Made by a program: the position numbers and the translations under genes. 64,000 nt of DNA from Candidatus Pacearchaeota archaeon (GTDB lineage: Archaea; Nanobdellota; Nanobdellia; Pacearchaeales; GW2011-AR1): positions 33,876-97,875 of the forward strand of contig JAWCQN010000001.1 in the NCBI GenBank assembly GCA_038869755.1. Direction: 5' to 3'. Under the pieces are notes generated by a model. The model was not told where the DNA came from. It made no database searches and worked only from the letters and a program-made list of their open reading frames with translations. This document shows positions 8,964 to 29,369 of this stretch, piece by piece (position 1 is the stretch's first letter; every line of letters begins with the position of its first letter).

Positions 8964-9047
8964 GCGAGAGTGCCGGAGTGGTCAAACGGGTCACGTTAAG
9001 GCCGTGATAGCTTAGTGCTTGCATAGGTTCGAATCCTATCTCTCGCA
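8964..9047 (+). tRNA. tRNA-Leu, type II. The anticodon loop reads UUAAGGC, so the apparent anticodon is AAG, which is unusual
   Basis: Near-identical to the minus-strand tRNA at 519-602. It has a compensatory acceptor-stem change (GCGAGAG/CTCTCGC). Position 34 is A instead of U. Confidence 0.75.
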
Positions 9048-17252: not shown

Positions 17253-18549
17253 AACTTCTCTAATAACCTAGTTTATTTAAATTTAATCAAAAATCCAAAA
17301 ACAATTGGAATCTTTTTACTTTATTAAGAAAAGATTAAACATCATAGATTTTAAATAACTTGATTAAGATCTAAATACGAATAAAACTCTCTTTTAGTTT
17401 TAATTGGATTATTAATAGTGAGGATGGTTAAATTTTTTATATCAAATAATTTATTTTCTAATTCAGGCGTTAGTACTAATTATTCTCTTGACATTATAAA
17501 AATGAAAAAAAATAAAAAACTTTCATCTTGATGGGGAGAATTTTAAATTTATCATGGATGGTGTAGAAAACTGATATCAGGGTTAAAAAAAGAGGTAAAG
17601 TAGAAATTGTTTTTGAGTCTTATTGTAGTGTTGGAAAGTATGGGGGAGAGAAAATGGTGTGAAGAGTAAATTAATAGTTGAGGAGTTTTCTAAGAGATGT
17701 TTATTTAATTTTACAACTTAACCACTATCTTCTTCAAATTCATTATAATTAAGCACTACCAATATAAGTTAAATATTTTAATTATTAATTAAATATTTTA
17801 GACATGTTTTTTTAAGGAAGGATATTTTTGAAAAAGGAGTATTTTTCCTTCATTTTTAGAGTGCTGACAATATATCTTGTGCGTAATTTTAAGTGATTTT
17901 TAGCCTATTTTTAAGTTTTTTATGAATTTGTGCGAACTTTTTAGCTTATTTTTAGTGGTACTAAAAGTTTTAAGTATTAATTAAATATTTTAAGTATATT
18001 TTTTAAGCCAATTATATCATCTTCAGTCTTGATTTAAACTATCTATGTATTAAACTATCTACATATCTTGAGAATCTTGAGGCCATTCTTTTATTTCTTA
18101 TAACTATTTCATATAATTAAGACCATAACTATATTGTTTGAATTAGTTCGGATTATAACCTTAAAAAGAATAGCTATTACTCTAAGTATAATCCAAAAGG
18201 TTAGAAAGTGATGAAAAATTGTTAAAATAGAACATATTTGAATTTATGGTTTTTCATACAATCAAAAAAATACAAAAAAATATTTAGAATAACACCGAAA
18301 ATAATAAAAATAGGCTATGCTAAAACTTTTAAGCAAAGATTAAAATTTTTAATAAGCTTAGTTTAAATCTTGATTTAGAGAAGTATAAGAAATATAGTCA
18401 TTATTAGTATTATATATTAAGCCCCGAATATGTTGATTAAATCCAATTAGACTAAGTAAACTAAGTAAAAAATAAGAAAAAACCTAAAAAGTGTTTTATT
18501 CAAAATTTTAGCAAGAAACCGGTATTTTCCAGCTATTCAAAATAAAATT

Positions 18550-18717: not shown

Positions 18718-19169
18718 TTTCTCTCCTTTATATTTTCCATTTTTTTATGTGTTTTTTTGTGTGTTTTGAACTAATAAAACATGGCCAGCCTAATAATTCC
18801 TAAAAATCTTTACAAAAGAAATTTAGAGTAAAACCGATCGTGTAAATTAGGATATCCAACCTAATTTCAAACAATTTTTAGCTCTTTTTTAGCTTAATAA
18901 TCTTAATATTTTAGAGATTTTAAAGTTTTCTAATTTTGATTGTACGAACTTAAGAGGAATTAATAAACCTGAAGAAACAGACTAATTTTTGTCGAGTTAA
19001 TTTTTTAAAAATGAATTTTTTTAAATAGTTAATTAAAAAAATAACAAAAAATATTTGTTTAAGCGATTTAAAAAAACAGAAAAACCTTATTTTTTGTTAA
19101 ATGTTCTGTGTTAACCTTTACTATTATTTGACTATTTTTGAACATCCTTAGTTTTTATTTTTATCGACG

Positions 19170-19230
19170 ATAAACAGCTGTTTAAGGCTGTTTAAACAGC
19201 TGTTTAAACAAAAAATGATGGTGTTTAAAC
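19170..19230. promoter_or_regulatory. Cluster of palindromic iteron-like motifs (AAACAGCTGTTTAA / GTTTAAAC), about 120 bp upstream of the wHTH gene
   Basis: GATAAACAGCTGTTTAAGGCTGTTTAAACAGCTGTTTAAAC ... GTGTTTAAAC. The same core recurs inside the downstream ORF at about 19611-19625. Confidence 0.45.
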
Positions 19231-19348
19231 TATATAAATTAGTCTTTTTATGGTATTTTTAGTAGATTTTTATATAGTTAATTTATATGATTTATTTAGT
19301 TTTTAGAAAGGTTTAAATAGTATTCTTCGTCTATAAATATTAAACAAT

Positions 19349-19981
19349 TTGTATTTTAATAAAATGTTTGAATGGTTTTTTGGAAAAAAGGATAAAAAAG
19401 AAGCTGATGAAATAAAAAAAGAAGTCAGAAATTCTTTTTCACTTGTAAAAAAAGATATAAATAAAATAACTACGTGGATTAATCACCTAAATGAATATGA
19501 TAAATCCTTAAGTAATGAAGTAAATAGTGTTAAAGAAGAAATATCGAATATAAATGACCAGATAGAACAAATAAAAGATTTAATCTCTATGATATCTGAC
19601 GGGTTTAATAAACAGCTGTTTAAAACATCAACGCCTGTTTATCGTAAACAAACAGGTGTTGATGTTGTTCAAACAGGTGTTCAAACAGGTGTTCAAACAG
19701 CTAATTTTTACGGATTTTCTAACTTGTCTGCAACAGAAAGAGCAATAATATGGATATTAATCAACAATGATTTAAAATTAAGTTATGATGATTTAGCAGC
19801 AATGTTAGGAAAAACAAGGTCAACAATAAGAGGGCAAATAAATAGTATAAAACAAAAAAGTGTGGGATTAATAGAGGAGTATATTGAAAAAAACGGAAAA
19901 AAGAGGGTTTACATACCTGAAGAAATAAAACAAAAAATATTGAAAAAGACGAAAGTGAGAGTTAAAAAAGATAAAGAGTAG
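19349..19981 (+). CDS. Coiled-coil + C-terminal winged-helix DNA-binding protein with an in-frame tandem repeat (QTGV x3)
   Basis: N-terminal heptad-rich region. 12-nt tandem repeat CAAACAGGTGTT x3 at 19648-19701 (QTGVDVVQTGVQTGVQT). C-terminal HTH-like SATERAIIWILINNDLKLSYDDLAAMLGKTRSTIRGQINSIK. Confidence 0.55.
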   Translation: MYFNKMFEWFFGKKDKKEADEIKKEVRNSFSLVKKDINKITTWINHLNEYDKSLSNEVNSVKEEISNINDQIEQIKDLISMISDGFNKQLFKTSTPVYRKQTGVDVVQTGVQTGVQTANFYGFSNLSATERAIIWILINNDLKLSYDDLAAMLGKTRSTIRGQINSIKQKSVGLIEEYIEKNGKKRVYIPEEIKQKILKKTKVRVKKDKE

Positions 19982-20325
19982 TTAGTAAAAATATTTTTTT
20001 AAGTTGTTATATTAAAAGTAGAGGGTAAAAAAAATACATAAAAAACAGAAAGTGATAGTTAGAATAGATAAAAATTAACAGAATTAAGGAAAAAAGAAAT
20101 GGAAAAAATCAGTGTAAAAAGGAAAGAGAGATAAAAAACCATAGAAAAAAATAATAAATCTAGGAAAGTGAGAAAAAACAAAAAAATGATAAGGAGGCAA
20201 TGGTGTGTAAGGGAATTAGATTTAAAATTGAAAAAAAATAAGTAGTGGATAAAGATATTGAAAAAAGACTAAAAAAGAGATTGAGTAGGAAAAAATAAAA
20301 AAATTAATTCGGTTTACCGATTTTC
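19982..20325 (+). other. Polypurine (A/G about 85%), C-depleted ORF-free spacer between convergent genes
   Basis: GAAAAAA/GGAAAG/GAGAGA-type words throughout. Almost no C on the + strand. Stops in all frames. Confidence 0.5.
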
Positions 20326-20988
20326 TTATTTAGACTCTCTTAGTAGTAGAATTGTATCTAAAGAAGCTAATTTTTTAAAATCGTCAGGGATATGGAGGAT
20401 GATATGTTTATTATTCTCTTTAGTTTTTATCAAAGGGGCCCCTTTATTTAAGATCCTTTGAACATAATCTCTAATGGAACTTTGGGAAAGAGATAATTTA
20501 GTAGCAAGGAAGTGATAATCTATAGTCGTTTGGTTGTTGTCATATTGGTAAATCGTTGAAAAAACAAGCATTTCCTGATTGGTTAAACTTTTGATTTTAT
20601 CTTTAAGTTCTTGTCTTAAACCATCTATTTGGTTTATTATTAGTGTTGATAAATTTCCTTTTTCACTTAATTTGTCTGTCTGTCTGATTGTCTGTCTGTC
20701 TGTCGAAACCCCTTCATTTCCTATGGAATTTTTTATATTTTGCCTTTTTAAGGCTTGAAATGGTAAAATATCTGTCGAAGTGTCTGTCGAAGTAACTTTA
20801 TGTGTCGAATTTGTCTGTCGAAGTGTTTGAACTTCAATATTAAGTGTCGAATTTAATTTAGTTAGATTAAGAATAGATGTTTGTATCTCTTCTAATTCTT
20901 TTTTTATACTATTTATTTCTATTTTTAAATCATATATATCTTGTTTTACCTTGTTAAATGCTTCTTTTATTTGATCCATTTTTTTCAA
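20326..20988 (-). CDS. Paralogous coiled-coil + winged-helix protein with in-frame STD/TDxS short repeats
   Basis: Same architecture as 19349-19981, convergent to it. DNA repeats TGTCTGTCGAAG/TGTCTGTCTG at 20683-20710 and 20771-20860 encode STDTSTD...STDRQTIRQTD. C-terminal wHTH-like LVFSTIYQYDNNQTTIDYHFLATKLSLSQSSIRDYVQRILNKG. Confidence 0.55.
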   Translation of the reverse strand: MKKMDQIKEAFNKVKQDIYDLKIEINSIKKELEEIQTSILNLTKLNSTLNIEVQTLRQTNSTHKVTSTDTSTDILPFQALKRQNIKNSIGNEGVSTDRQTIRQTDKLSEKGNLSTLIINQIDGLRQELKDKIKSLTNQEMLVFSTIYQYDNNQTTIDYHFLATKLSLSQSSIRDYVQRILNKGAPLIKTKENNKHIILHIPDDFKKLASLDTILLLRESK

Positions 20989-21021
20989 TAAAAATGTTTT
21001 AATATTTAAGGTTTTTTATTT

Positions 21022-21288
21022 TTATAGTTTTTTATAAGCGTCATATGCTTTATTAGATAATCTCCACCTTACCCTCCGAGTGTAATTTACTCCTTTTGGA
21101 TTTTTTATCACTTTAACTAATAACTCTTTTTTCTCAAGTTTTTCTAATAAAGATTTAATAAATTCCTCATCCCTAGCAACTTCCTGAGAAATATTTGCAG
21201 TAAATAAAGGTTTTGGATAAGAAGAATATAATAAAGATAAGATATGTTCTGAAATTTTGTCTTTCTTTTTATCTGATATTTTAGGCAT
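21022..21288 (-). CDS. Small winged-helix-like putative DNA-binding protein
   Basis: 88 aa. ILSLLYSSYPKPLFTANISQEVARDEEFIKSLLEKLEKKELLVKV resembles a wH recognition helix plus wing. Basic C-terminus. Confidence 0.4.
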   Translation of the reverse strand: MPKISDKKKDKISEHILSLLYSSYPKPLFTANISQEVARDEEFIKSLLEKLEKKELLVKVIKNPKGVNYTRRVRWRLSNKAYDAYKKL

Positions 21289-21322
21289 TAATAATCTATA
21301 AAAAAAAGATATTTAAGGTTTT

Positions 21323-21766
21323 TTAATTTAGTGAATCTTTAGATTTTCCTATTTTTGGTTTATCTACAAATTTTGGAGTTGGAATATGAAAAGGGATATT
21401 TAGTGTTTCTTCAAGCTCCATGGCTGTTAAATTACATTTATTGAAAATAATATTAAGTAAAGGAATTCTTAACTCATCTTCAACTTTTTTTTCCTTCCAA
21501 CTCTTTAAAATCTTTTTAAACAAATCATTTTCTGATTTTTCCATTAGTAGAGCAATATTTCCAGAAAAAAAAAGCTCGGCAAAATCAGGCATATATTTAA
21601 TTTTAAGTTCATAATCTATATTTAGAATATCCTGATCTTTAAATAAATCGTTAATCCTAGATTGGATATCTTTTATTTGAATATCTGTATTAATATTTAA
21701 TTCATTCGTAGGTTCTTTATTTTTTTCAATAGATATTTTCTTAAAATTAAATCCAATTAATCTCAT
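21323..21766 (-). CDS. Hypothetical protein
   Basis: 147-aa ORF with no recognisable motif. Confidence 0.35.
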   Translation of the reverse strand: MRLIGFNFKKISIEKNKEPTNELNINTDIQIKDIQSRINDLFKDQDILNIDYELKIKYMPDFAELFFSGNIALLMEKSENDLFKKILKSWKEKKVEDELRIPLLNIIFNKCNLTAMELEETLNIPFHIPTPKFVDKPKIGKSKDSLN

Positions 21767-21780
21767 TTTTAATATAAAAG

Positions 21781-22041
21781 CTACCTTAAATCTTCTTCAG
21801 AAATGACAACAAAATCGCCAATAGCCATAATTGAGTTATGAGGTACTAATAATTCTCCCTGACTAGATCTTTCTAAGTTTAAATTCTGAGAATAAGGAGT
21901 AGCATTTTTAATGACTAATTGAATTAATTCACCTGTTCTAGTCTCAAAAGTAAGGTCCTGAACAATACCAAGTCTTTTACCCTCTTTAGTCACAACCATC
22001 TTACCAACAAGATCTCTAAGTGGTCTTTTATCACTTACCAT
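21781..22041 (-). CDS. PRC-barrel domain protein
   Basis: L.GK.VVTKEGKRLGIVQDL.FETRTGELIQLVI ... IMAIGDFVVISEE is the typical archaeal stand-alone PRC barrel. Confidence 0.7.
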   Translation of the reverse strand: MVSDKRPLRDLVGKMVVTKEGKRLGIVQDLTFETRTGELIQLVIKNATPYSQNLNLERSSQGELLVPHNSIMAIGDFVVISEEDLR

Positions 22042-22439
22042 ATTTTGTAGAAATTAAGTTAATATTTAAACTTTTCTGTAGTCACCAAGTATTTTTAGTG
22101 TTTTTTGTTTTATTTTTTCTTAAATTTAATAATTTTAATACTTTTATTTGAAATTTATAAGTATTTAATCAATTATAAAAAACTAAAAAGATGAATAAGT
22201 ATAGTTAATTTTAAATAAAAGATATTATATTCAAAAAATATATTTAATAGTGGTTAAGAATTGAAATTAATATACATAATAGTGGTCAGGAAAAAGTTAT
22301 AACTATTTTTTTATGTAGTTCTTTTTAGGCAATATATTAGAAATAATAAAAAAATAGGTTTTAAAGAGTATTTGATTTTGTTTATTTTTTCTCTTTATTT
22401 TACCCTACCCCTTTATTTCATATAGAAATATTTAAAAAA

Positions 22440-22600
22440 GAAATGTTATTTTTTTGTTTTTAAAATTTATTTATAAATATTTATATATTATATAATACAT
22501 ATTGTATTATATTTATTCTATTAAATATATTATATTAATTTTATTTTAGCATACATACTAAATTACATATGATATATTATATATAATAGATAATCTAACT
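22440..22600. other. Near-pure A/T stretch, candidate DNA-unwinding element
   Basis: About 160 bp with only a handful of G/C. It lies within the 990-bp ORF-free region upstream of orc1/cdc6. Confidence 0.45.
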
Positions 22601-22747
22601 TATTTATTTTAATATATCTTATATCAAAATCTTATTTATTCTATATAACCTGCTGTTTTAATATATCTTATATCAAAATCTTATTTATTCTATATAACCT
22701 GCTGTTTTAATATATCTTATATCAAAATCTTATTTATTCTATATAAC
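22601..22747. repeat. Three perfect tandem 49-bp direct repeats (AATATATCTTATATCAAAATCTTATTTATTCTATATAACCTGCTGTTTT)
   Basis: Read directly; copies start at about 22601, 22650 and 22699. No spacers, so not CRISPR. About 290 bp upstream of orc1/cdc6. Confidence 0.85.
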
Positions 22748-23032
22748 CTGCTGTTGTATACTTAAAATATACTTAGTATGTAGACTTAGCTTCAATATTA
22801 ACCTTTAACTTTTAGCATTTTTTTTCCAAGAGAAATCATGGTGTGACTCTTTTTAATAAACTAAAGATTATATAAACTCTTATTAAATTGTACTAAAATT
22901 TATGGTAATACTTTTATTCGATAAGTGAACGTCTTATTATTTTTAATCAAAAGTTTAATTAATGTCTCCATATGAAATGAAGGTACTATTTTTTTCTATA
23001 ATAAAATTTATACAAAACTTTATAAAATATAT

Positions 23033-24292
23033 TTGGATTTAGACTTATACATTAAATTAAAAAGGGATGAAATGGACTTAAAAGTTAATTCAAAGGTAGA
23101 TAAAATTTTTGATTCTTTTATGGATAATAAGATTTTTCAGGACAAATTTGTTTTACAGACAGGTTATACTCCAAGTACTATACCTCATAGAGATGAGCTT
23201 ATTACCCAAATTGCTTCAATACTTGCCCCTTCATTAAGGGGTGAAAAAACCAGTAATCTTTTTGTTTATGGTAATACAGGGACCGGAAAAACACTTTCTA
23301 TTCAGTATGTAAGGGACGAATTACTAAGGAGAAACAACCATTTAAAAAATAACTTAGTAATAGAGTATGTAAATTGTAAATTAAAAAAAATATCAGATAC
23401 TGAATACAGGATTTTTGCGGAATTAATAAAAAAATTAGGAGGAAATGTTCCTGCAACAGGGTTGCCCACAGATCAGGTTTATAATAAGTTTATAGAATTA
23501 GTAGATAGTGGTAAAAAATTAATTATCTTAGTTTTTGATGAAATCGATCATGCAGTTGATAAAATATCAGATAATTTTTTATATAATTTAACAAGAATTA
23601 ATTCTGAATTAAAAAAATCACAAATAAGTATTATTGGAATTAGTAATAATTTAACTTTTTTGGAAAATTTAGATCCAAGAGTAAGAAGTTCATTGAGTGA
23701 AGAGGAAATTGTATTTCCACCATATAATGCCTTACAACTTAAAGATATATTAAAAGAGAGGGCTGAAAAAGCCTTTAAGAAAGGGGTTTTAGATGAAGGA
23801 GTCATTTCAAAATGTGCTGCCTTTGCAGCAAAAGAACATGGAGATGCAAGAAGAGCTTTGGATTTATTAAGAATTGCAGGAGAAATTGCAGAAAGGAAGA
23901 ATTCAGATAAAATAACTTTAGACGATATTGATTTAGCCAATGATAAAATTGAAAGAGATAAAATATTAGATAGTGTCACAAATGCTCCAAAACAATTCCA
24001 ATTATCTTTATTGGCAATAATAAGTTTAGTTGAGAAAAATAAAATCAAAGAAATATTTACAGGAGAAGTTTATAATGAATACCAAGATTTATGTAAAATT
24101 ACTAAAACAGAAGTTTTAACACAAAGAAGGGTTTCAGATATATTATCTGAATTTGATATGATGGGAATAATTAATTCAAATATTATTTCTAAAGGAAGGC
24201 AAGGAAGAACAAGAAAGATTAGGCTATCAATACCAGTCAAATTAATTCCAAAAGTTAAAGAAAACTTATACGAATCTCTTAATTTACCTTAA
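23033..24292 (+). CDS. orc1: Orc1/Cdc6 replication initiator
   Basis: AAA+ Walker A FVYGNTGTGKT, Walker B ILVFDEID, sensor motifs, C-terminal winged helix. Confidence 0.9.
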   Translation: MDLDLYIKLKRDEMDLKVNSKVDKIFDSFMDNKIFQDKFVLQTGYTPSTIPHRDELITQIASILAPSLRGEKTSNLFVYGNTGTGKTLSIQYVRDELLRRNNHLKNNLVIEYVNCKLKKISDTEYRIFAELIKKLGGNVPATGLPTDQVYNKFIELVDSGKKLIILVFDEIDHAVDKISDNFLYNLTRINSELKKSQISIIGISNNLTFLENLDPRVRSSLSEEEIVFPPYNALQLKDILKERAEKAFKKGVLDEGVISKCAAFAAKEHGDARRALDLLRIAGEIAERKNSDKITLDDIDLANDKIERDKILDSVTNAPKQFQLSLLAIISLVEKNKIKEIFTGEVYNEYQDLCKITKTEVLTQRRVSDILSEFDMMGIINSNIISKGRQGRTRKIRLSIPVKLIPKVKENLYESLNLP

Positions 24293-24316: not shown

Positions 24317-25912
24317 ATGGATCAAGAAATTATACAATTTTGCAATCAGAGAGGTATTTTACTAGATAAGTATCTGATTAAACAATTAACTCATTTTAAT
24401 AATAATTATCTTTTAAAAAATTTGTTAGATAGAATTACCCTTCAGTATAAACAAAAAATAATTACTAAATCTTTTTTTAACGACAAAAAAAAGATTATTG
24501 AAATCTTATCTAACTATAATAATAATGAGCGTATCATTTTAGAGGATTTTTTTGAAAGTTTGGGAATAGATACTAATTTTTTTAATAACAAATCACCTTC
24601 AGACTATTCTTTTATTACCAATAATGAAAGTGGAGAGGTATCTATAAATAAAGTTTACCATAATAAGCCAAGGAAATTAAGTGTTGAAGATTTTATTAAT
24701 AATTTTAAAAACAGGTTTTTATTTTTGAAAAATATATTACAAGAGAGACCAGATCTTGATAATTTAGTTTCTATAAATAAGTTAGAAACATCTACAAATA
24801 AAAATTTTTCATTAATAGGCATAGTTTATGACAAACATACAACAAAAAATGGAAATGTCTTATTAACTATTGAAGATCTAACCGGTTCAATAAATGCATT
24901 GGTTAATAAAAATAAGAGTGATGTATTTGAGAAATCTAAAGAGATATTGTTTGATGAGGTAATAGCTTTAAAATGTTCTGGAAGTAAGGAAATGGTTTTT
25001 GTTAATGATATAATATTTCCTGATTCAAGAATTATAACTAAAAAAAAATCAAATTTTGAAGAATATGCCGCATTTACTTCAGATATTCATGTTGGAAGTG
25101 ATAAATTTTTGGAGAGCAATTTTATTAAATTTATTAATTGGCTTAATGGGAATATTGGTGATGAAAATCAGAGAAGAGAGGCATTAAAAGTAAAATATCT
25201 TTTTATAACAGGAGATTCAATAGATGGTGTTGGTATTTATCCCGGTCAAGAGTCACAATTAATTATCAAAGATGTTAATGAACAATATAAAAAATTAGCA
25301 GAATTGTTACTTGCTATCAGGCCTGATGTCAGCATAATTTTGTGTGCTGGACAACACGATGCTGTCAGAGTGGCAGAACCCCAACCAATTATTGGAGAAC
25401 ATTATGGTTCATCTTTAAATCTCATTAATAATTTATATTTAGTAAGTAATCCCTCAATTGTAAGTATAGGAAGGGATGTTAAGTTTAAAGTTTTAATGTA
25501 CCATGGAGCCAGCATTCACGGGATAATAAATGAAATTGATAGTTTAAGAATTAATAAGGCACATGATTCTCCAACCTCTGTTGTAAAGTATATGTTAAAA
25601 AAAAGACATTTGGCTCCAACTCACTCATTAGTAACATATACTCCTTTAGAGAAAGAGGATGCTTTATTAGTGAGTGAAATCCCTGACATACTGGCAACAG
25701 GAGATTTACATAGGCCAGAGATATCAGATTATAATGGAGTCATTTTGATAGCATCAAGTTGCTGGCAGTCTAAAACACCCTTTGAAGAGAAAGTAGGCAA
25801 TAATCCTGATCCTTGTAAAGTCCCTTTATTTAATCTTAAAACAAGAGAAATAAAAATTCTTGATTTTAGCGATAATTTAGTTGAGGAGAAAAAGATGGAA
25901 AATGCAGACTGA
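24317..25912 (+). CDS. polB... (DP1): DNA polymerase II (PolD) small subunit DP1
   Basis: N-terminal OB domain. C-terminal calcineurin-like phosphoesterase motifs (FTSDIHVGSD, ITGDSIDG, ATGDLH). Adjacent to DP2. Confidence 0.85.
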   Translation: MDQEIIQFCNQRGILLDKYLIKQLTHFNNNYLLKNLLDRITLQYKQKIITKSFFNDKKKIIEILSNYNNNERIILEDFFESLGIDTNFFNNKSPSDYSFITNNESGEVSINKVYHNKPRKLSVEDFINNFKNRFLFLKNILQERPDLDNLVSINKLETSTNKNFSLIGIVYDKHTTKNGNVLLTIEDLTGSINALVNKNKSDVFEKSKEILFDEVIALKCSGSKEMVFVNDIIFPDSRIITKKKSNFEEYAAFTSDIHVGSDKFLESNFIKFINWLNGNIGDENQRREALKVKYLFITGDSIDGVGIYPGQESQLIIKDVNEQYKKLAELLLAIRPDVSIILCAGQHDAVRVAEPQPIIGEHYGSSLNLINNLYLVSNPSIVSIGRDVKFKVLMYHGASIHGIINEIDSLRINKAHDSPTSVVKYMLKKRHLAPTHSLVTYTPLEKEDALLVSEIPDILATGDLHRPEISDYNGVILIASSCWQSKTPFEEKVGNNPDPCKVPLFNLKTREIKILDFSDNLVEEKKMENAD

Positions 25913-28900
25913 AAAATATTTTCATGAATTAGAAAAAGAAATAAAGAGGAACTATAAAATAGCAGAAGAGGCTAGAAAAAAAGGGTTAGATCCTGTGGAT
26001 TTTGTAGAGGTCCCTCTTGCACACAATTTAGCCGAGAAGTCAGTAGGGCTTATTTCAAGTTTATATCCCCAATTAAATGACAAGAAAATTGTAAACAGGA
26101 TAGTTGAGTTAGAGAAAGAATATGGCCGATTGGACGTTTCTGTTTGTTTGAAGATAGCAGAGGAAATAGCTAAAGAGAAATTCTGTAAATTTAAATCTCA
26201 TTTAGAGGCTATTGAAGCAGGAATCAGGGTAGGATTCGCATATATCACTTTAGGTGTTGTCTCAAGTCCAATAGAGGGCTTTACTTTTCTTAAAATTGGA
26301 AAAACAGAAAAAGGGAAGGAATATTTTATTCCATACTTTTCAGGACCTTTAAGAAGTGCAGGCGGAACAGGGGCAACATACTCGTTAATGATAATTGATC
26401 ATTTAAGAGAAGTGTTTGGGTATAGTAAATATGATCCTAATGAAAAAGAAGTTAAAAGGGCTGTAACAGAAATTTTTGATTTCCATGAGAGGGTTACAAA
26501 CTTACAATATCTCCCTGCCGTTGAAGAAATTGAGTTTTTAGTTAGGAATTTACCCATTCAAATTGCTGGAGAGCCAAGTGAGAATATAGAAGTTTCAAAT
26601 TATAAAGATCTTCCAAGAATTGATACAAATTATTTAAGAAGCGGTGTTTGTTTAATGATTGCAGAGGGCATTGCCCAAAAAGCCCCGAAAGCTTTAAGAG
26701 TTTTAAAAGGATTAAGAAAAAACGGATTTAAATTAAGTGACTGGGATTTTTTGGAAGGTTATTGTAAAATACATGAAAAGTCAAAATCAGGTGAAAAAGA
26801 TTTAGTTGCAACATATATAAAAGACATTGTTGCAGGAAGACCTATTTTTGGACATCCATCAAAGTCAGGAGGATTTAGGTTTAGATATGGTCGTTCAAGA
26901 GTATCTGGTTTTTCCGGTACTTCTATTCATCCGGCTACAATGGCCATTTCTGATAGTTTCTTGGCTATTGGAACCCAATTAAAACTTGAGAAGCCAAGTA
27001 AAGGATGTGCTATTTCTGTTTGTGACTCAATTGATGGACCAATAGTAAAGTTGAATGACGGAAGTGTTAAAAGAATTTCTGATTATCATGAAGCAAAAAA
27101 ACTTTCTAAAGATGTTTCTGAAATATTATATTTTGGAGATTTGCTTTTTCCATTTGGAGATGTAGTAAATAGGAATAGTCTTTTACTGAAACCCGGCTAT
27201 GTTGAAGAGTGGTGGTCTTTAGAGCTGGAAAAAGCAGGCCAGATGGTTAAAAATATTTATGATGTTGGATTTGATGAAGCAGTTAACCTATCAAAACAAT
27301 TTTGTCTGCCCCTTTATCCAAAATACATATTTTTCTGGAGCCAGATAACTTATAAAGATTTACTTGAGTTATTAAGATGGATGAGTTATGCAAGGCTAAA
27401 TGGAAAAATTATTTTACCTTACTCTCATCTTGAGGCAGAGAAATTTAAAGAAGGGAAAAGAGTATTGGAGCTTTTGGGTGTTGAGCACTATATTTGGGTT
27501 GAAAATGTCATAATTTCTCCTATTGATAGTAAGGCTTTATTTGTTAATTTAGGGTTAGACTTGGAATATCTTGATAAGGAAAATTATTTTATAGAGGATG
27601 AAATAAATAAAATTGCAGACAAGGTTTTATCTTATGAAGAAAAAGATGTTTTGAAGATTATTAATTCCTTATCTCATTTTGTTATTAAAGATAAGGCAGG
27701 AGATTTTATAGGAGCAAGAATGGGCAGGCCGGAAAAAGCCAAACTTAGAAAATTGACTGGAAGCCCACATGTTTTATTTCCAGTAGGCGAGGAAGGCGGG
27801 AGGTTCAGGAGCATACAGGAAGCATGTTTAAAAGAGGGTGTTGTTTCAGATTTCCCATTATTTTTCTGTGAAGTATGCAATAATGAAACTATTTATCCTT
27901 CTTGCGAAAAATGTGGTAAGAAAACTAAAAAGATGTATTATTGTCGCCAGTGCTTAAAAAAATTATCTCAGGAAAAATGCGAGGAACATGGAACAGGAAC
28001 TGGATTTTATAAGAGGAGAATAAATATTAATGATTATTTTAATCACTCTCTTAAACTTCTTAATTTAGGTAGTGGAGAAATACCCGGACTTATAAAAGGC
28101 GTTAGAGGAACGTCCTCTGAAGACCATGCTGTGGAAAGTTTAGCTAAAGGAATCATTAGAGCCAAATTTAACTTACATGTCAATAAAGATGGAACAATAA
28201 GATATGATATGACTGAACTGCCAATTACACATTTTAAACCGAAAGAGATTGGAATAAGTATTGAGAAGGCAAAAGAACTTGGATATACAAAAGATTTTTG
28301 TGGAAATCCGTTAGTGGGTGAAGATCAGATATTAGAGCTAATGCCTCATGATATAATTCTCCCGTGTTGCCCGGAATCTGGAGATGAAAAAGCAGATGAA
28401 GTTTTTGTCGCTGTTGCACATTTTATGGATTTTTTATTGAAAAATTTTTATTATTTAGATAGTTTTTATAATATAAAGAAAAAGGAGGATTTGATAGGTC
28501 ATTTGATGGTTTGTATGGCTCCTCATAATTGTGCAGGAGTAATTTCCAGAATTATAGGGTTTTCAAAAACACAGGGTTTGTTAGCCAGCCCATATATGCA
28601 TGCTGCAATGAGGAGAGATTGTGATGGGGATGAAGCTGCTTGTATGATGTTATTGGACGTATTAATTAACTTTTCCAGAAAGTATCTTCCAAGCCATAGA
28701 GGTGGAACACAAGATGCTCCTCTTGTTTTAAATGGCCGTATTGTTGCTGGTGAAGTTGACGATCAGATACTTGATTTTGAAGTAGTAAGCAGATACCCTT
28801 TGGAGCTTTATGAAAAAGCAGAACAAAGAGCACATAGCAGTGAGGTAAAAATTGAGATGGTTAAAGACCTACTAAGGAAATCTTTAGATCCGTTTAAAAA

Positions 28901-29369
28901 TATTTCTTATACACATGAAACAAATGATTTTAATGAGGGTGTTTTATGTTCTTCTTATAAGAAAATACCTACAATGCAAGAGAAAGTTGAAAGAGAAATG
29001 GAATTGGTAAAAAAATTAAGGTCTGTTGATTCTTCGGATGTTGCACGTTTGATAATAGAGAGGCATTTCATAAGAGATATTAGAGGTAATTTAAGAAAAT
29101 TTTCTATGCAGGGTTTTAGATGTGTAAAATGCAATGAAAAATTTAGAAGACCTCCTCTTCAAGGAACATGTCTTAAGTGTGGAGGCAGAATAATTTTTAC
29201 AATTTCAGAAGGAGGAATTATAAAATATCTGGAACCGGCCTTAAATTTGGCAAAATCTTATGATATCCCTGTTTATGTTAAACAAAATATTGAACTGACT
29301 AAAAAGTATATAGAAAGCATTTTTGGAAGGGAAGAGACTAAACAGACTCAACTTGAACAATGGTTTTGA
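25902..29369 (+). CDS. DNA polymerase II (PolD) large subunit DP2
   Basis: 1150-aa protein with the DP2 catalytic region and Cys clusters (CEVCNNET...CEKCG, CVKCNEKFRRPPLQGTCLKCGG). Start set at the Met overlapping the DP1 stop (ORF open from 25881). Confidence 0.9.
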   Translation: MQTEKYFHELEKEIKRNYKIAEEARKKGLDPVDFVEVPLAHNLAEKSVGLISSLYPQLNDKKIVNRIVELEKEYGRLDVSVCLKIAEEIAKEKFCKFKSHLEAIEAGIRVGFAYITLGVVSSPIEGFTFLKIGKTEKGKEYFIPYFSGPLRSAGGTGATYSLMIIDHLREVFGYSKYDPNEKEVKRAVTEIFDFHERVTNLQYLPAVEEIEFLVRNLPIQIAGEPSENIEVSNYKDLPRIDTNYLRSGVCLMIAEGIAQKAPKALRVLKGLRKNGFKLSDWDFLEGYCKIHEKSKSGEKDLVATYIKDIVAGRPIFGHPSKSGGFRFRYGRSRVSGFSGTSIHPATMAISDSFLAIGTQLKLEKPSKGCAISVCDSIDGPIVKLNDGSVKRISDYHEAKKLSKDVSEILYFGDLLFPFGDVVNRNSLLLKPGYVEEWWSLELEKAGQMVKNIYDVGFDEAVNLSKQFCLPLYPKYIFFWSQITYKDLLELLRWMSYARLNGKIILPYSHLEAEKFKEGKRVLELLGVEHYIWVENVIISPIDSKALFVNLGLDLEYLDKENYFIEDEINKIADKVLSYEEKDVLKIINSLSHFVIKDKAGDFIGARMGRPEKAKLRKLTGSPHVLFPVGEEGGRFRSIQEACLKEGVVSDFPLFFCEVCNNETIYPSCEKCGKKTKKMYYCRQCLKKLSQEKCEEHGTGTGFYKRRININDYFNHSLKLLNLGSGEIPGLIKGVRGTSSEDHAVESLAKGIIRAKFNLHVNKDGTIRYDMTELPITHFKPKEIGISIEKAKELGYTKDFCGNPLVGEDQILELMPHDIILPCCPESGDEKADEVFVAVAHFMDFLLKNFYYLDSFYNIKKKEDLIGHLMVCMAPHNCAGVISRIIGFSKTQGLLASPYMHAAMRRDCDGDEAACMMLLDVLINFSRKYLPSHRGGTQDAPLVLNGRIVAGEVDDQILDFEVVSRYPLELYEKAEQRAHSSEVKIEMVKDLLRKSLDPFKNISYTHETNDFNEGVLCSSYKKIPTMQEKVEREMELVKKLRSVDSSDVARLIIERHFIRDIRGNLRKFSMQGFRCVKCNEKFRRPPLQGTCLKCGGRIIFTISEGGIIKYLEPALNLAKSYDIPVYVKQNIELTKKYIESIFGREETKQTQLEQWF

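Follow-up and report, generated by a model that had tools for sequence, protein, structure and literature searches.

In phage lambda, ori lies within gene O, and its iterons are the stretch of the gene that codes for the linker between the domains of the initiator. In Bacillus subtilis, parS is located inside spo0J/parB near oriC, and in the parC/ParR system of plasmid R1 iteron arrays flank the promoter. In Pyrococcus, a cluster of origin recognition boxes (ORBs) inside the dp1 gene is bound by Cdc6/Orc1 both in vivo and in vitro (Matsunaga et al. 2007, PMC1904270); this ORB3/mini-ORB cluster is located in dp1, the gene for the small subunit of PolD, in Pyrococcus and Thermococcus, and is conserved in related genomes (PMC1904270).

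Here we analysed a window of 64,000 nucleotides (the whole stretch of DNA considered) from a Candidatus Pacearchaeota archaeon, in which two convergent genes, A and B, resemble these systems. Like lambda O, gene A has inverted-repeat iterons in the linker-coding part of the presumed binder's gene, and, like dp1, gene B codes for a protein, contains an ORB and lies a few kb away from oriC and orc1/cdc6. As with parS/spo0J and R1 parC, the A locus has origin-proximal sites in and around the gene of the presumed binder, and its upstream array likewise consists of multiple helical-repeat-spaced sites (10 bp) near a promoter that is presumably autoregulated. The genes and the origin region are as follows.

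19364-19981, plus strand: gene A, encoding a 205-aa protein (coiled coil, disordered linker, winged helix-turn-helix (wHTH)); NCBI name HTH domain-containing protein
20326-20979, minus strand: gene B, paralogue of A, 217 aa (helix, long disordered linker, helix plus wHTH)
21022-21288, minus strand: wH88, a small wHTH gene and conserved neighbour, 88 aa (Pfam HTH_69 E = 5.9e-5, below cutoff)
21323-21766, minus strand: p147, a conserved 147-aa gene without Pfam, NCBIfam, PHROG or PDB match
21781-22041, minus strand: PRC-barrel gene, 86 aa (Pfam PRC E = 4.5e-10), which leads the leftward gene string
22402-22986, no strand assigned: probable oriC, with ORBs, an AT-rich region and tandem repeats
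22402-22428, minus strand: degenerate ORB, the left ORB of oriC
22607-22758: three perfect 49-nt tandem repeats in the AT-rich region of oriC, which has 13-14% GC
22823-22846, plus strand: second ORB of oriC
22966-22986, plus strand: ORB-like site
23033-24292, plus strand: orc1/cdc6 initiator gene, followed by the small and large subunits of polD (24317-29369)

Both A and B are where an earlier note on this DNA had placed them, but the starts given there (TTG 19349 and TTG 20988) were wrong: homologues and promoter position set the true starts at ATG 19364 for gene A and ATG 20979 for gene B. A TATA-like hexamer was present at -45 to -20 (mode -27) in 73/73 orthologous gene A loci with an ATG start, the promoter consensus of the gene A orthologues is aAAAa.aAAA.aTTTTTAAA, and the gene A mRNA is probably leaderless. 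The order A-B-wHTH-p147-PRC-[oriC]-orc1-polD is conserved in 80 related, species-level genomes of Pacearchaeota, Woesearchaeota and Nanoarchaeota, with wH88 found in 74, p147 in 68 and PRC in 68 of the 80 loci. The A-B pair is origin-proximal in a sister lineage too, and the p147 gene is also found there. The earlier suggestion of an origin-associated module was therefore borne out, since the pair lies, in a conserved arrangement, 1.4-2 kb from an ORB-flanked region of 13% GC by orc1/cdc6 and polD; the very AT-rich DNA of the window spans 22100-22700. In the literature library that was searched, we found no paper that joins DPANN with "origin recognition box" or describes the A-B cluster, and none on the organisation of replication initiation or chromosome segregation in DPANN; the PRC-barrel paper makes no mention of the A-B neighbourhood.

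AlphaFold2 predicts for protein A a helix (residues 4-80), a disordered segment (80-115, pLDDT <50) and a wHTH domain (117-194), and for protein B a helix (2-43), a disordered segment (44-104), a second helix (105-130) and a wHTH domain (134-196), the winged helix-turn-helix fold being predicted in both with pLDDT of about 86-96. The two proteins match weakly by BLASTP (22% identity, E = 0.015), and profile-profile comparison backs homology of their wHTH domains (probability 96%, E = 2e-9); they are distant paralogues. Searches of Pfam, NCBIfam, PHROGs, PDB sequence profiles and Foldseek returned only generic wHTH or coiled-coil matches for A, B, p147 and wH88, and no homology to a known Rep or initiator family, in agreement with the earlier description of A and B as a paralogous coiled-coil plus wHTH pair of an uncharacterised family. 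PHROG matches were marginal for A and wH88 (best E = 5.9e-4) and absent for B and p147; Pfam HTH_11 scored 25.7 for A against a cutoff of 25, with B under the cutoff. The best Foldseek matches of the wHTH domains were MepR, MarR and AbfR2 (E 1e-4 to 1e-3), and the ORC2 winged-helix domain was also matched. A and B share the C-terminal wHTH fold with Lrs14/Sta1/AbfR and MarR/MepR proteins, but unlike them have a long N-terminal helix and a disordered linker of 35-60 residues, and the MarR-type dimerisation helices are absent. In NCBIfam the similarity to Sta1 and Lrs14 is weak, the curated thresholds being missed by far (Sta1 27 bits versus a cutoff of 80; Lrs14 18 versus 90).

Synonymous sites are scattered in the rest of A, B and the neighbouring genes but almost fixed in the two linkers. 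Third-position conservation is 0.88-0.96 in the linkers (0.88-0.94 in the A array) versus a mean of 0.55-0.63 in wH88, p147, PRC and Orc1, where no comparable conserved nucleotide runs were found. In the gene A linker, Thr is encoded by ACA in 366/379 cases (background 46%), Ala by GCT in 154/155 (35%) and Gly by GGT in 115/116 (21%). Gln103, Gln107 and Gln111 are CAA in 231/231 cases, yet Gln84 and Gln91 are CAG in 75/78; at positions 85 and 92 V and L alternate, with GTG/CTG retained as the codon (background 11% and 5%). Ahead of the linker, at the degenerate palindrome copy of codons 60-64, Ser61 is TCG in 68/73. Gene B behaves in the same way, with Ser85 as TCC in 75/75, Gly90 as GGG in 74/75 and Asp94 as GAC in 72/72. 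Equally conserved residues of A outside the linker use scattered codons, with saturated synonymous sites. The 80 lineage-1 loci were chosen partly by the peptide pattern T[GAP]VQT[GAP]VQT, which may inflate peptide conservation; codon conservation should escape this bias, assuming fully degenerate back-translation by the search tool, and it affects neither the analysis of gene B nor the set of sister-lineage loci. Since both linkers are predicted to be disordered (pLDDT <50), a structural cause for an invariant peptide is unlikely. On sequence evidence, the micro-repeats of the two linkers are DNA elements that act in cis and do not represent peptide repeats in evolution. Peptide repeats that contract and expand, as had been proposed, are not a feature of gene A, which keeps three VQT units in 73/79 orthologues and a length of 199-223 aa. 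The nucleotide-level conservation of the linker repeats had escaped the first reading of this DNA.

The sites at gene A are the following.

19152-19170, no strand assigned: E1 palindrome TTTTATCGACGATAA, directly 5' of the iteron array
19171-19230, no strand assigned: upstream iteron array of six half-sites, [CG]TGTTT[AG] / [CT]AAACA[CG], with two AAACAGCTGTTT palindromes 22 bp apart
19313-19339, plus strand: gene A core promoter, with TATA-like TTTAAATA at 19313-19320 and TATAAATA at 19332-19339
19541-19555, plus strand: degenerate intragenic E1 copy ATATCGAATATAAAT at codons 60-64 (in most orthologues TTATCGACGATAAAA, encoding L-S-T-I-K)
19609-19700, plus strand: intragenic iteron array of seven half-sites, encoding the linker KQLFK...KQTGVDVVQTGVQTGVQT

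The gene A linker contains about ten half-sites of the iteron AAACAS/STGTTT, and the same iteron is arrayed upstream of the A promoter. AAACAGCTGTTT occurs in three exact copies in the 64 kb (19172, 19194 and 19610; 0.37 expected, a count reached in 0/100 shuffles) and CAAACAGGTGTT also in three (19649, 19670 and 19682), while the half-site [CG]TGTTT[AG] forms only two clusters in the window, of six at 19171-19221 and seven at 19609-19694 (shuffles, maximum 3). The palindromes are thus local iterons that recur in gene A, as first proposed, but the upstream copies lie about 155-195 bp from the true ATG and not about 120 bp. The earlier note had held that its view would fail if the proteins belonged to a well-characterised family with no link to replication or partition, if the palindromes were ubiquitous in the genome, or if the repeats were absent or frame-breaking in relatives; none of these was found. 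Orthologous upstream arrays, present in 80/80 loci, average about eight half-sites per locus at -400 to -50, against a background of about 0.05 per 100 bp. Enrichment of the motif, 50-100 fold, is confined to -300 to -100 and +100 to +400 from the A start, and none is seen in the origin region upstream of orc1; TATCGWCG is enriched solely upstream of A and at A codons 60-64 (80 loci). In the linker the iterons are preceded by the TTATCGWCGATAA palindrome, and the same order of elements is found in the non-coding DNA upstream of the promoter. The centres of AACA-SS-TGTT are distributed alike upstream (GC 62, GG 43, CC 6, CG 0) and in the coding sequence (GC 92, GG 115, CC 21, CG 1), so that the choice of residue (A, G or P, never R) mirrors the non-coding preference, and TAA is found in the upstream copy where the coding sequence must read CAA. 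The coding and non-coding arrays are thus one and the same element. Compared with lambda O, gene A is chromosomal, archaeal and without homology to the phage protein, it has a second array upstream of its promoter, and its intragenic array has no clear AT-rich unwinding element, a separate ORB-type oriC being nearby.

In gene B, the corresponding stretch consists of an ORB and tandem repeats.

20707-20728, minus strand: canonical ORB TTCCATAGGAAATGAAGGGGTT, inside B codons 84-91 (S-I-G-N-E-G-V)
20672-20706, minus strand: TCG(ACAG)n tract abutting the ORB on its 3' side, encoding STDRQTIRQTD, with (TGTC)8 at 20673-20704
20771-20829, minus strand: further TTCGACAGAC-type units ('STD' repeats) in the variable linker of B, with TCTGTCGAAGTG-type copies

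The canonical ORB TTCCAnnGGAAAtnaaGGGGT is present in the gene B linker of both lineages. The consensus of 75 B genes, tTTCCAnnGGAAAtnaaGGGGTT, contains the dyad core TCCAnnGGAAA, the spacer and the G-string (GGGGT), and the site matches the Pyrococcus ORB1/ORB2 oligonucleotides, including P. furiosus ORB1 (PMC1904270); the Pyrococcus sequence TTCCAGTGGAAATGAAA...GGGG and TTCCAnnGGAAAtnaaGGGGT of gene B are alike. This ORB, too, is missing from the earlier note. Outside gene B, (ACAG)n is absent, and in the sister lineage the place of the ACAG tract is taken by (CAAT)n, (CACT)n, (CATT)n, (CAAG)n or repeats of 10-12 nt. Linker length varies only in B, which ranges from 208 to 387 aa overall. 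The B recognition helix differs between repeat-unit groups; since phylogeny confounds the pairing of helix and repeat, we make no claim of covariation for B. Unlike dp1, the gene that hosts this box encodes an uncharacterised wHTH protein and lies across oriC from where dp1 does, and the box itself is a predicted Orc1 site, known from its sequence. It further differs from the dp1 cluster in being located in a disordered linker and forming the most conserved part of its gene, in being always followed by a lineage-specific tandem repeat, and in being able to flip strand, as it does in the B linker of one sister-lineage locus (L144). In the window 1.7 kb separate the B ORB from the AT-rich region, and its polarity is that of the left oriC ORB; in L144, the sister-lineage locus where it was located, it is about 6 kb from the PRC-orc1 intergenic region. 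At these distances a role at the origin proper is uncertain.

The sister lineage was selected by wHTH patterns only. Its recognition helix reads VTxRRHINDI, versus STIRGQINSI in lineage 1, and its linker iteron is CGTTCAA, with TTCATGAA, GAACGTTC and TCAATCGT in 41-43 of 45 loci. CGTTCAA, not AAACAG, is found at -160 to -25 in 12/50 sister loci and nowhere else within about 4 kb. Since recognition helix, linker iteron and upstream iteron change together, a covariation that spans two lineages only, we infer that A binds its own iterons. With the upstream array restricted to so few sister loci, the intragenic array is the constant feature.

Taken together, A and B are probably a lineage-specific, chromosomal and origin-proximal pair of paralogous, sequence-specific DNA-binding proteins whose linker repeats are cis-acting DNA elements. 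We infer both the identity of the binder at each site and the effect of binding. The N-terminal helix would oligomerise the two proteins, and the reading frame would merely tolerate the DNA elements in the linkers. Oligomerised A would bind the upstream and intragenic arrays, enclose between them about 440 bp with the promoter and the 5' half of its gene, and in this way autoregulate gene A; it may also build a fixed nucleoprotein complex flanking oriC. Orc1/Cdc6, encoded a few kb away, would bind the ORB inside gene B, and the repeat next to this ORB may be B's own site. Such an arrangement would tie the expression of B, or the B protein, to the initiator. As for the A iterons, B or the 88-aa wHTH protein could bind them in place of A. 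Several observations count against this explanation. The constancy of the intragenic array means that simple promoter-operator autoregulation cannot explain everything; the lineage-1 arrays are 110-300 bp upstream of the TATA box, which is far for a classical archaeal operator; the G/C half-site variant shows no correlation between upstream and coding copies within genomes (rho = 0.11); one sister-lineage genome (L143) is seemingly without B; and the distances of the B ORB from the origin region have been given above.

Tentatively, and with less confidence, A and B can be seen as dedicated architectural or segregation factors of the origin region in Nanoarchaeota-type DPANN, with A as a ParB- or RacA-like anchor and B as a partner of Orc1. 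A would assemble on its two iteron arrays, one of them in its own gene, and mark or tether origin-proximal DNA, while B, on its lineage-specific tandem repeat beside Orc1 on the embedded ORB, would modulate initiation. With the cis site lodged in the gene itself, protein and site would be inherited, and co-evolve, as a unit, and this would explain the lineage-specific iteron switches. As in ParB/parS systems, a cluster of origin-proximal sites is found at and in the gene of the presumed binder, a part proposed for A from covariation only. The fold of A and B, a coiled coil plus wHTH, differs from a ParB HTH and from a ribbon-helix-helix, and the conserved block, in which the neighbours are the small wHTH gene, p147 and PRC, lacks a partition NTPase (ParA, ParM, SegA) as well as any P-loop or actin-like gene. 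A segregation role for A and B is pure conjecture.

An unlikely reading takes the A-B locus for a replication origin, or an origin-like element, in its own right, with A an accessory initiator that has iterons in its own gene as in lambda O, the B ORB recruiting Orc1, and unwinding nearby. In its favour are an iteron array that coincides with the linker codons of a DNA-binding protein, an ORB 1.1 kb away, the pair of inverted ORBs about 80-90 bp apart inside B in some loci (L013, L099, L108 and L110), an intragenic array that is steadier than the upstream one, and the 344-bp A-B spacer, which is unusually long for convergent genes and has a strong purine skew. However, a far better candidate lies beside orc1, with its 13-14% GC, inverted ORBs and 49-nt repeats; the B ORB shares the polarity of the left oriC ORB, and homology to known initiators is absent. 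GC is 0.28-0.30 at 19500-19900, which covers the A array and is about the window average, and 0.21-0.25 in the A-B spacer, so neither is a clear unwinding element, and the intragenic iterons lack the adjoining AT-rich element of a lambda-O-type origin.

We consider it quite improbable that the arrays act at the RNA level, through mRNA structure or through a small RNA from the upstream array that pairs with the intragenic array and controls the translation or stability of A. Inverted repeats abound in the arrays, and the upstream copies (about 2:1 forward) are mostly opposite in orientation to those in the coding sequence (about 1:3). In 48/80 loci, moreover, a conserved element 5' of the array, GTGCACTWAGGTTAnCTTWGTKMA, is preceded by a AAATTTTT box and often followed by T-runs, which could be the promoter and terminator of a small transcript; no tRNA genes were found adjoining this element. 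Against this, the spacing of sites, 10 bp upstream versus 12 bp in the coding sequence, leaves no long co-linear complementarity, and the S of the half-site is G or C without compensation in the partner arm, GG and CC being common and CG essentially absent. The TATA box, which is universally conserved and lies 27 nt before the ATG, is also downstream of the array, gene B has an ORB as its element, which is a DNA site, and no Rfam family matched in the window, around the arrays or in one related locus.

The earlier note had favoured a plasmid or viral Rep or partition cassette, or an integrated mobile element, which is now very unlikely. Iterons beside and within a DNA-binding protein gene, in arrays of direct and inverted sites as in an iteron-Rep replicon, and a family without annotation are what remains of this view: the location is neither extrachromosomal nor variable, since 80 genomes share one gene order beside orc1-polD and the sister pair is likewise origin-proximal, and Rep or initiator homology is lacking. 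There was no integrase, direct repeat or compositional island at the locus, and no meaningful PHROG match, and IMG/VR, INPHARED and PLSDB (2.9 million viral contigs, 50,697 phage records and 72,556 plasmids) yielded no relative.

Hardly credible, finally, and rejected by codon usage, is the proposal that KQTAVxxVQTxVQTxVQT and SIGNxGVSTDRQTxRQTD function as short linear motifs, with codon bias and shared ancestry accounting for the nucleotide conservation: although the peptides are near-invariant within lineage 1, rare codons are fixed (CTG, GTG, TCC, GGG, GAC, TCG) and the commonest synonyms ACT, GCA and GGA are absent, residues change while the DNA motif stays at 84/85 and 91/92, synonymous sites are saturated at conserved residues beyond the linker, non-coding sequence contains the same DNA, the L144 ORB is antisense, and the linkers are predicted to be disordered.

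The preferred explanation, an origin-proximal pair of DNA-binding proteins with cis-acting elements in their linkers, bears on a group that is difficult to study: DPANN archaea are uncultivated or hard to grow, and their genomes are about 1 Mb or less. For DPANN, the locus offers a sequence-defined oriC, an extra, very strongly conserved and predicted Orc1 box in an unexpected place, and two candidate origin-associated DNA-binding proteins, for whose predicted sites an in vitro test would need no more than recombinant protein. The A and B linkers are also an unusually clean example of dual-use coding, in which the top "conserved peptide motif" would be the by-product of a DNA element in a disordered linker, and this element switches sequence between lineages along with the recognition helix. 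Invariant motifs in disordered regions need not, therefore, be peptide signals, and synonymous-site scans can reveal cis elements in compact genomes.

Genes A and B, the neighbouring genes under study, lie in a window of ~29% GC, and proteins identical to both are already in the database, from a Candidatus Pacearchaeota MAG. The TTG starts called by the ORF tool and used in the earlier note (19349 and 20988) are wrong, as homologues begin MF.W... (A) and MD.IKEAF (B). The homologue N-termini, together with a conserved TATA box 27–32 nt before the ATG, place the true start of A at ATG 19364. This TATA box is the core promoter of A and is found in every orthologous locus, 27 nt before the ATG in the modal case; the upstream iteron array lies outside it.

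Gene models used here
19364–19981, plus strand: gene A, 205 aa
20326–20979, minus strand: gene B, 217 aa

AlphaFold2 predicts an N-terminal helix (residues 4–80), a disordered linker (80–115, pLDDT < 50) and a winged helix-turn-helix domain (wHTH, 117–194) for A, and for B an N-terminal helix (2–43), a disordered linker (44–104, pLDDT < 50), a further helix (105–130), a wHTH (134–196) and two short helices. While BLASTP of A against B is marginal by itself, profile–profile comparison supports the proposed paralogy, with homologous wHTH domains (96%, E = 2e-9). The wHTH regulator fold itself is of a known kind. We detected 2,078 relatives of A and 652 of B, assigned, where named, to Pacearchaeota or Nanoarchaeota, and since an exhaustive profile search yielded just 511 clusters at 50% identity, the A/B family is lineage-restricted. 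The A–B spacer (19982–20325, 344 bp) is strongly purine-skewed (GC skew 0.6–0.7, AT skew 0.4–0.5) and ranges from ~70 to >800 bp between genomes; it holds degenerate copies of the 3′ coding sequence of A (ATATTGAAAAAAACGGAAAAAAGAG at 19881, 19937 and 20255). Elsewhere, the window carries a 5S rRNA gene (653–765), two tRNA-Leu genes (519–602 and 8964–9047) and, unusually for so compact a genome, 1.3 kb (17253–18549) in which neither strand has an ORF of at least 50 aa and Rfam gives no match.

The suggested origin association of the module is supported by gene order. In 80 species-level genomes of the window's lineage (lineage 1) the order is A(+), B(−), an 88-aa wHTH gene (wH88, −), a 147-aa gene (p147, −), a PRC-barrel gene (−), an intergenic region of oriC type, orc1(+), polD-small(+) and polD-large(+). 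B is present in 80/80 loci, wH88 in 74/80, and p147 and the PRC-barrel gene in 68/80 each; orc1 was seen in 52/80, essentially all those with sufficient flank. The 1-kb spacer before orc1 contains the following elements, ORB being the origin recognition box, the Orc1/Cdc6 site.

Elements of the spacer before orc1
22402–22428, minus strand: degenerate ORB
22468–22588: AT repeats of 14-nt period
22607–22758: three perfect tandem copies of a 49-nt repeat, each ending in CCTGCTGTTTTA, in a stretch of 13–14% GC
22823–22846, plus strand: ORB-like site
22966–22986, plus strand: ORB-like site

This is the usual archaeal layout, and 22402–22986, just upstream of orc1/cdc6–polD, is probably the chromosomal oriC. 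The gene closest to it in both lineages is that for the stand-alone PRC-barrel protein (21781–22041, −; 86 aa). In haloarchaea, stand-alone PRC-barrel proteins (CdpB) take part in FtsZ-based division (bioRxiv 10.1101/2023.03.28.534520), a report that makes no mention of a link to the origin region. Just upstream of B and of wH88, TATTTAAGGTTTTTTA occurs twice (20997–21015 and 21303–21320); its minus strand, AAAACCTTAAATA, is BRE/TATA-like, pointing to a separate promoter for every gene of the leftward string.

The peptide of the A linker, KQLFKT...KQTAVxxVQTxVQTxVQT, looks invariant, yet it maps to the stretch for which disorder is predicted. The earlier note read its repeats as evolving peptide repeats; for A, the near-fixed codons identify them instead as DNA elements.

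Codon use in the A linker, with the background frequency of each codon
Thr (five positions): ACA, 366/379; background 46%
Ala: GCT, 154/155; background 35%
Gly: GGT, 115/116; background 21%
Gln103/107/111: CAA, 231/231; background 64%
Gln84/91: CAG, 75/78; background 36%
Positions 85 and 92: V or L varies, codon GTG or CTG kept; background 11% and 5%

At equally conserved residues of A outside the linker (T124, T154, G157, L139 and others) codons are scattered, and thus synonymous sites are saturated at this divergence. Third-position conservation peaks at 0.88–0.94 over codons 96–113, against 0.47–0.76 over most of the gene; the remaining peaks are at codons 86–90 (0.80; KQLFK, in the linker) and 196–200 (0.87), and neighbouring genes have none comparable. 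The conserved linker DNA is a series of AAACAS/STGTTT iteron half-sites. Near the 3′ end of A, AAAGTGAGAGTT (19949–19960; codons 196–199, KVRV) is also conserved as nucleotides, with Val198 encoded by GTG in 76/76 although GTG makes up just 11% of Val codons; it may be a further embedded element.

The same half-sites recur in non-coding DNA. On average, the 80 loci carry ~6.5 at −300 to −100 and ~7.5 at +100 to +400 of A, compared with ~0.05 per 100 bp elsewhere, including the orc1 spacer. The repeats and palindromes listed in the earlier note are all present, far above chance expectation.

Centre (SS) of the inverted pair AACA-SS-TGTT
Upstream non-coding: GC 62, GG 43, CC 6, CG 0
In coding sequence: GC 92, GG 115, CC 21, CG 1

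Since the centre preference is alike in both settings, the residues seen at x of VQTx (Ala, Gly or Pro, but never Arg) mirror the DNA motif. The array reads GTTTAAACAG upstream and GTTCAAACAG in the coding sequence, where TAA in frame would end translation. A second palindrome, TTATCGWCGATAA (19152–19170), directly precedes the upstream array, and most orthologues carry its counterpart, TTA-TCG-ACG-ATA-AAA, at codons 60–64 of A ahead of the intragenic array (Ser61 is TCG in 68/73). Thus, the element order of the upstream DNA is repeated in the coding sequence. Farther out, at about −200 to −600 of the A start, 48/80 loci share GTGCACTWAGGTTAnCTTWGTKMA, which lies 5′ of the iteron array, forms a 9-bp hairpin in some loci and follows a TGCAAAATTTTTGCA-like palindrome and a patch rich in GC. 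It matches neither Rfam nor tRNA and may represent a gene for a small RNA or a further site for a protein; the window has a possible degenerate counterpart at ~18920–18950.

More divergent family members have other linker peptides, such as ERSIVHERSxAFNRSNQSFMNVQS in a sister lineage, and intermediate members carry linkers of VRTGVRTG or KQMSV type. We collected 62 metagenome loci of this sister lineage with scan patterns drawn from the wHTH alone, so that linker conservation is unbiased. Here too the linker DNA is fixed as nucleotides (TTCATGAA, GAACGTTC and TCAATCGT, each in 41–43/45 loci), this time as 4–7 copies of another iteron, CGTTCAA. Two or more copies of CGTTCAA, but not AAACAG, lie at −160 to −25 of A in 12/50 loci, and none was seen elsewhere within ~4 kb. 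The intragenic array is present in all loci; the constant feature is therefore the intragenic rather than the upstream array. The recognition helix reads VTxRRHINDI in the sister lineage versus STIRGQINSI in lineage 1, and it is chiefly this three-way covariation of linker iteron, upstream iteron and recognition helix from which we infer that A binds its own iterons. With 10-kb flanks (A, B, ..., ArgRS, LonB, PRC-barrel gene, spacer, cdc6, polD) the pair is again seen to be origin-proximal; one genome (L143) has no recognisable B and no cdc6 at that place. Between A–B and PRC–oriC–cdc6 there are insertions of LonB (intein match in L144) and arginyl-tRNA synthetase (L144, 16155–17165, and another locus), and upstream of A the same loci have integrase, toxin–antitoxin and transposase genes.

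The B linker is nucleotide-fixed over codons 84–101 (Ser85 TCC 75/75, Gly87 GGA 69/69, Gly90 GGG 74/75, Asp94 GAC 72/72, Gln96 CAG 71/73 and every Thr ACA), with the consensus tTTCCAnnGGAAAtnaaGGGGTTyCrACAGACAGACAGACA. Judged by sequence, its leading 22 nt are a canonical ORB; reverse-complemented, the ORB1 oligonucleotide of P. furiosus is TTCCAGTGGAAATGAAACTCTGGGGGG (PMC1904270). Lineage-1 loci have ORB-like sites nowhere but in B and the orc1 spacer, and the ORB of B is oriented like the left ORB of oriC. An intragenic, origin-proximal ORB has precedent, since in Pyrococcus an ORB cluster within dp1 is bound in vivo by Cdc6/Orc1 (PMC1904270). In sister-lineage B the ORB stays in the same position, followed by (CAAT)n, (CACT)n, (CATT)n, (CAAG)n, (AAAT)n or 10–12-nt repeats rather than (ACAG)n, and L144 has it on the other strand from the reading frame of B. 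Two inverted ORB cores ~80–90 bp apart occur within B in L013 (+1002/+1079), L099, L108 and L110.

Nucleotide-level constraint is confined to the disordered linkers of A and B; the A element is identical with that of the non-coding upstream array and the B element with the ORB consensus. A, oligomerised via its long helix, would bind both arrays, ~440 bp apart, and so bracket its own promoter, leading to autoregulation and perhaps to a fixed nucleoprotein complex on the oriC flank. Orc1 would bind within gene B, and by analogy with A the variable repeat adjoining the ORB may be the site of B itself.

Binding sites inside the gene of their own binder are familiar from lambda O/ori and spo0J/parS, and a second origin resembling that of lambda O is an unlikely alternative. 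An RNA-level function of the arrays we consider marginally less likely again. That the linkers are conserved as peptide motifs, as the apparent invariance of the A peptide might suggest, is highly improbable, given the predicted disorder and near-fixed codons of the A linker, and is hard to square with the opposite-strand ORB of L144. The mobile element envisaged in the earlier note is just as improbable, and we reject it because the gene order is conserved on the chromosome in 80 genomes and no relative of A was found in IMG/VR, phage or plasmid collections.

Among the parts, ORBs, iterons and an ORB within a gene (Pyrococcus dp1) are of known kinds. We found no papers describing the A/B family, its origin position or its linker elements. 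What appears to be new is the protein family with its constant position next to the origin throughout a whole DPANN group, the cis elements in the linkers to which both paralogues owe their most conserved "peptide motifs", and the change of these elements together with the recognition helix. The two paralogous wHTH proteins show lineage-specific element switches at a conserved origin-proximal position, and the role of the proposed complex may be transcriptional control only, control of initiation, or origin tethering or segregation.
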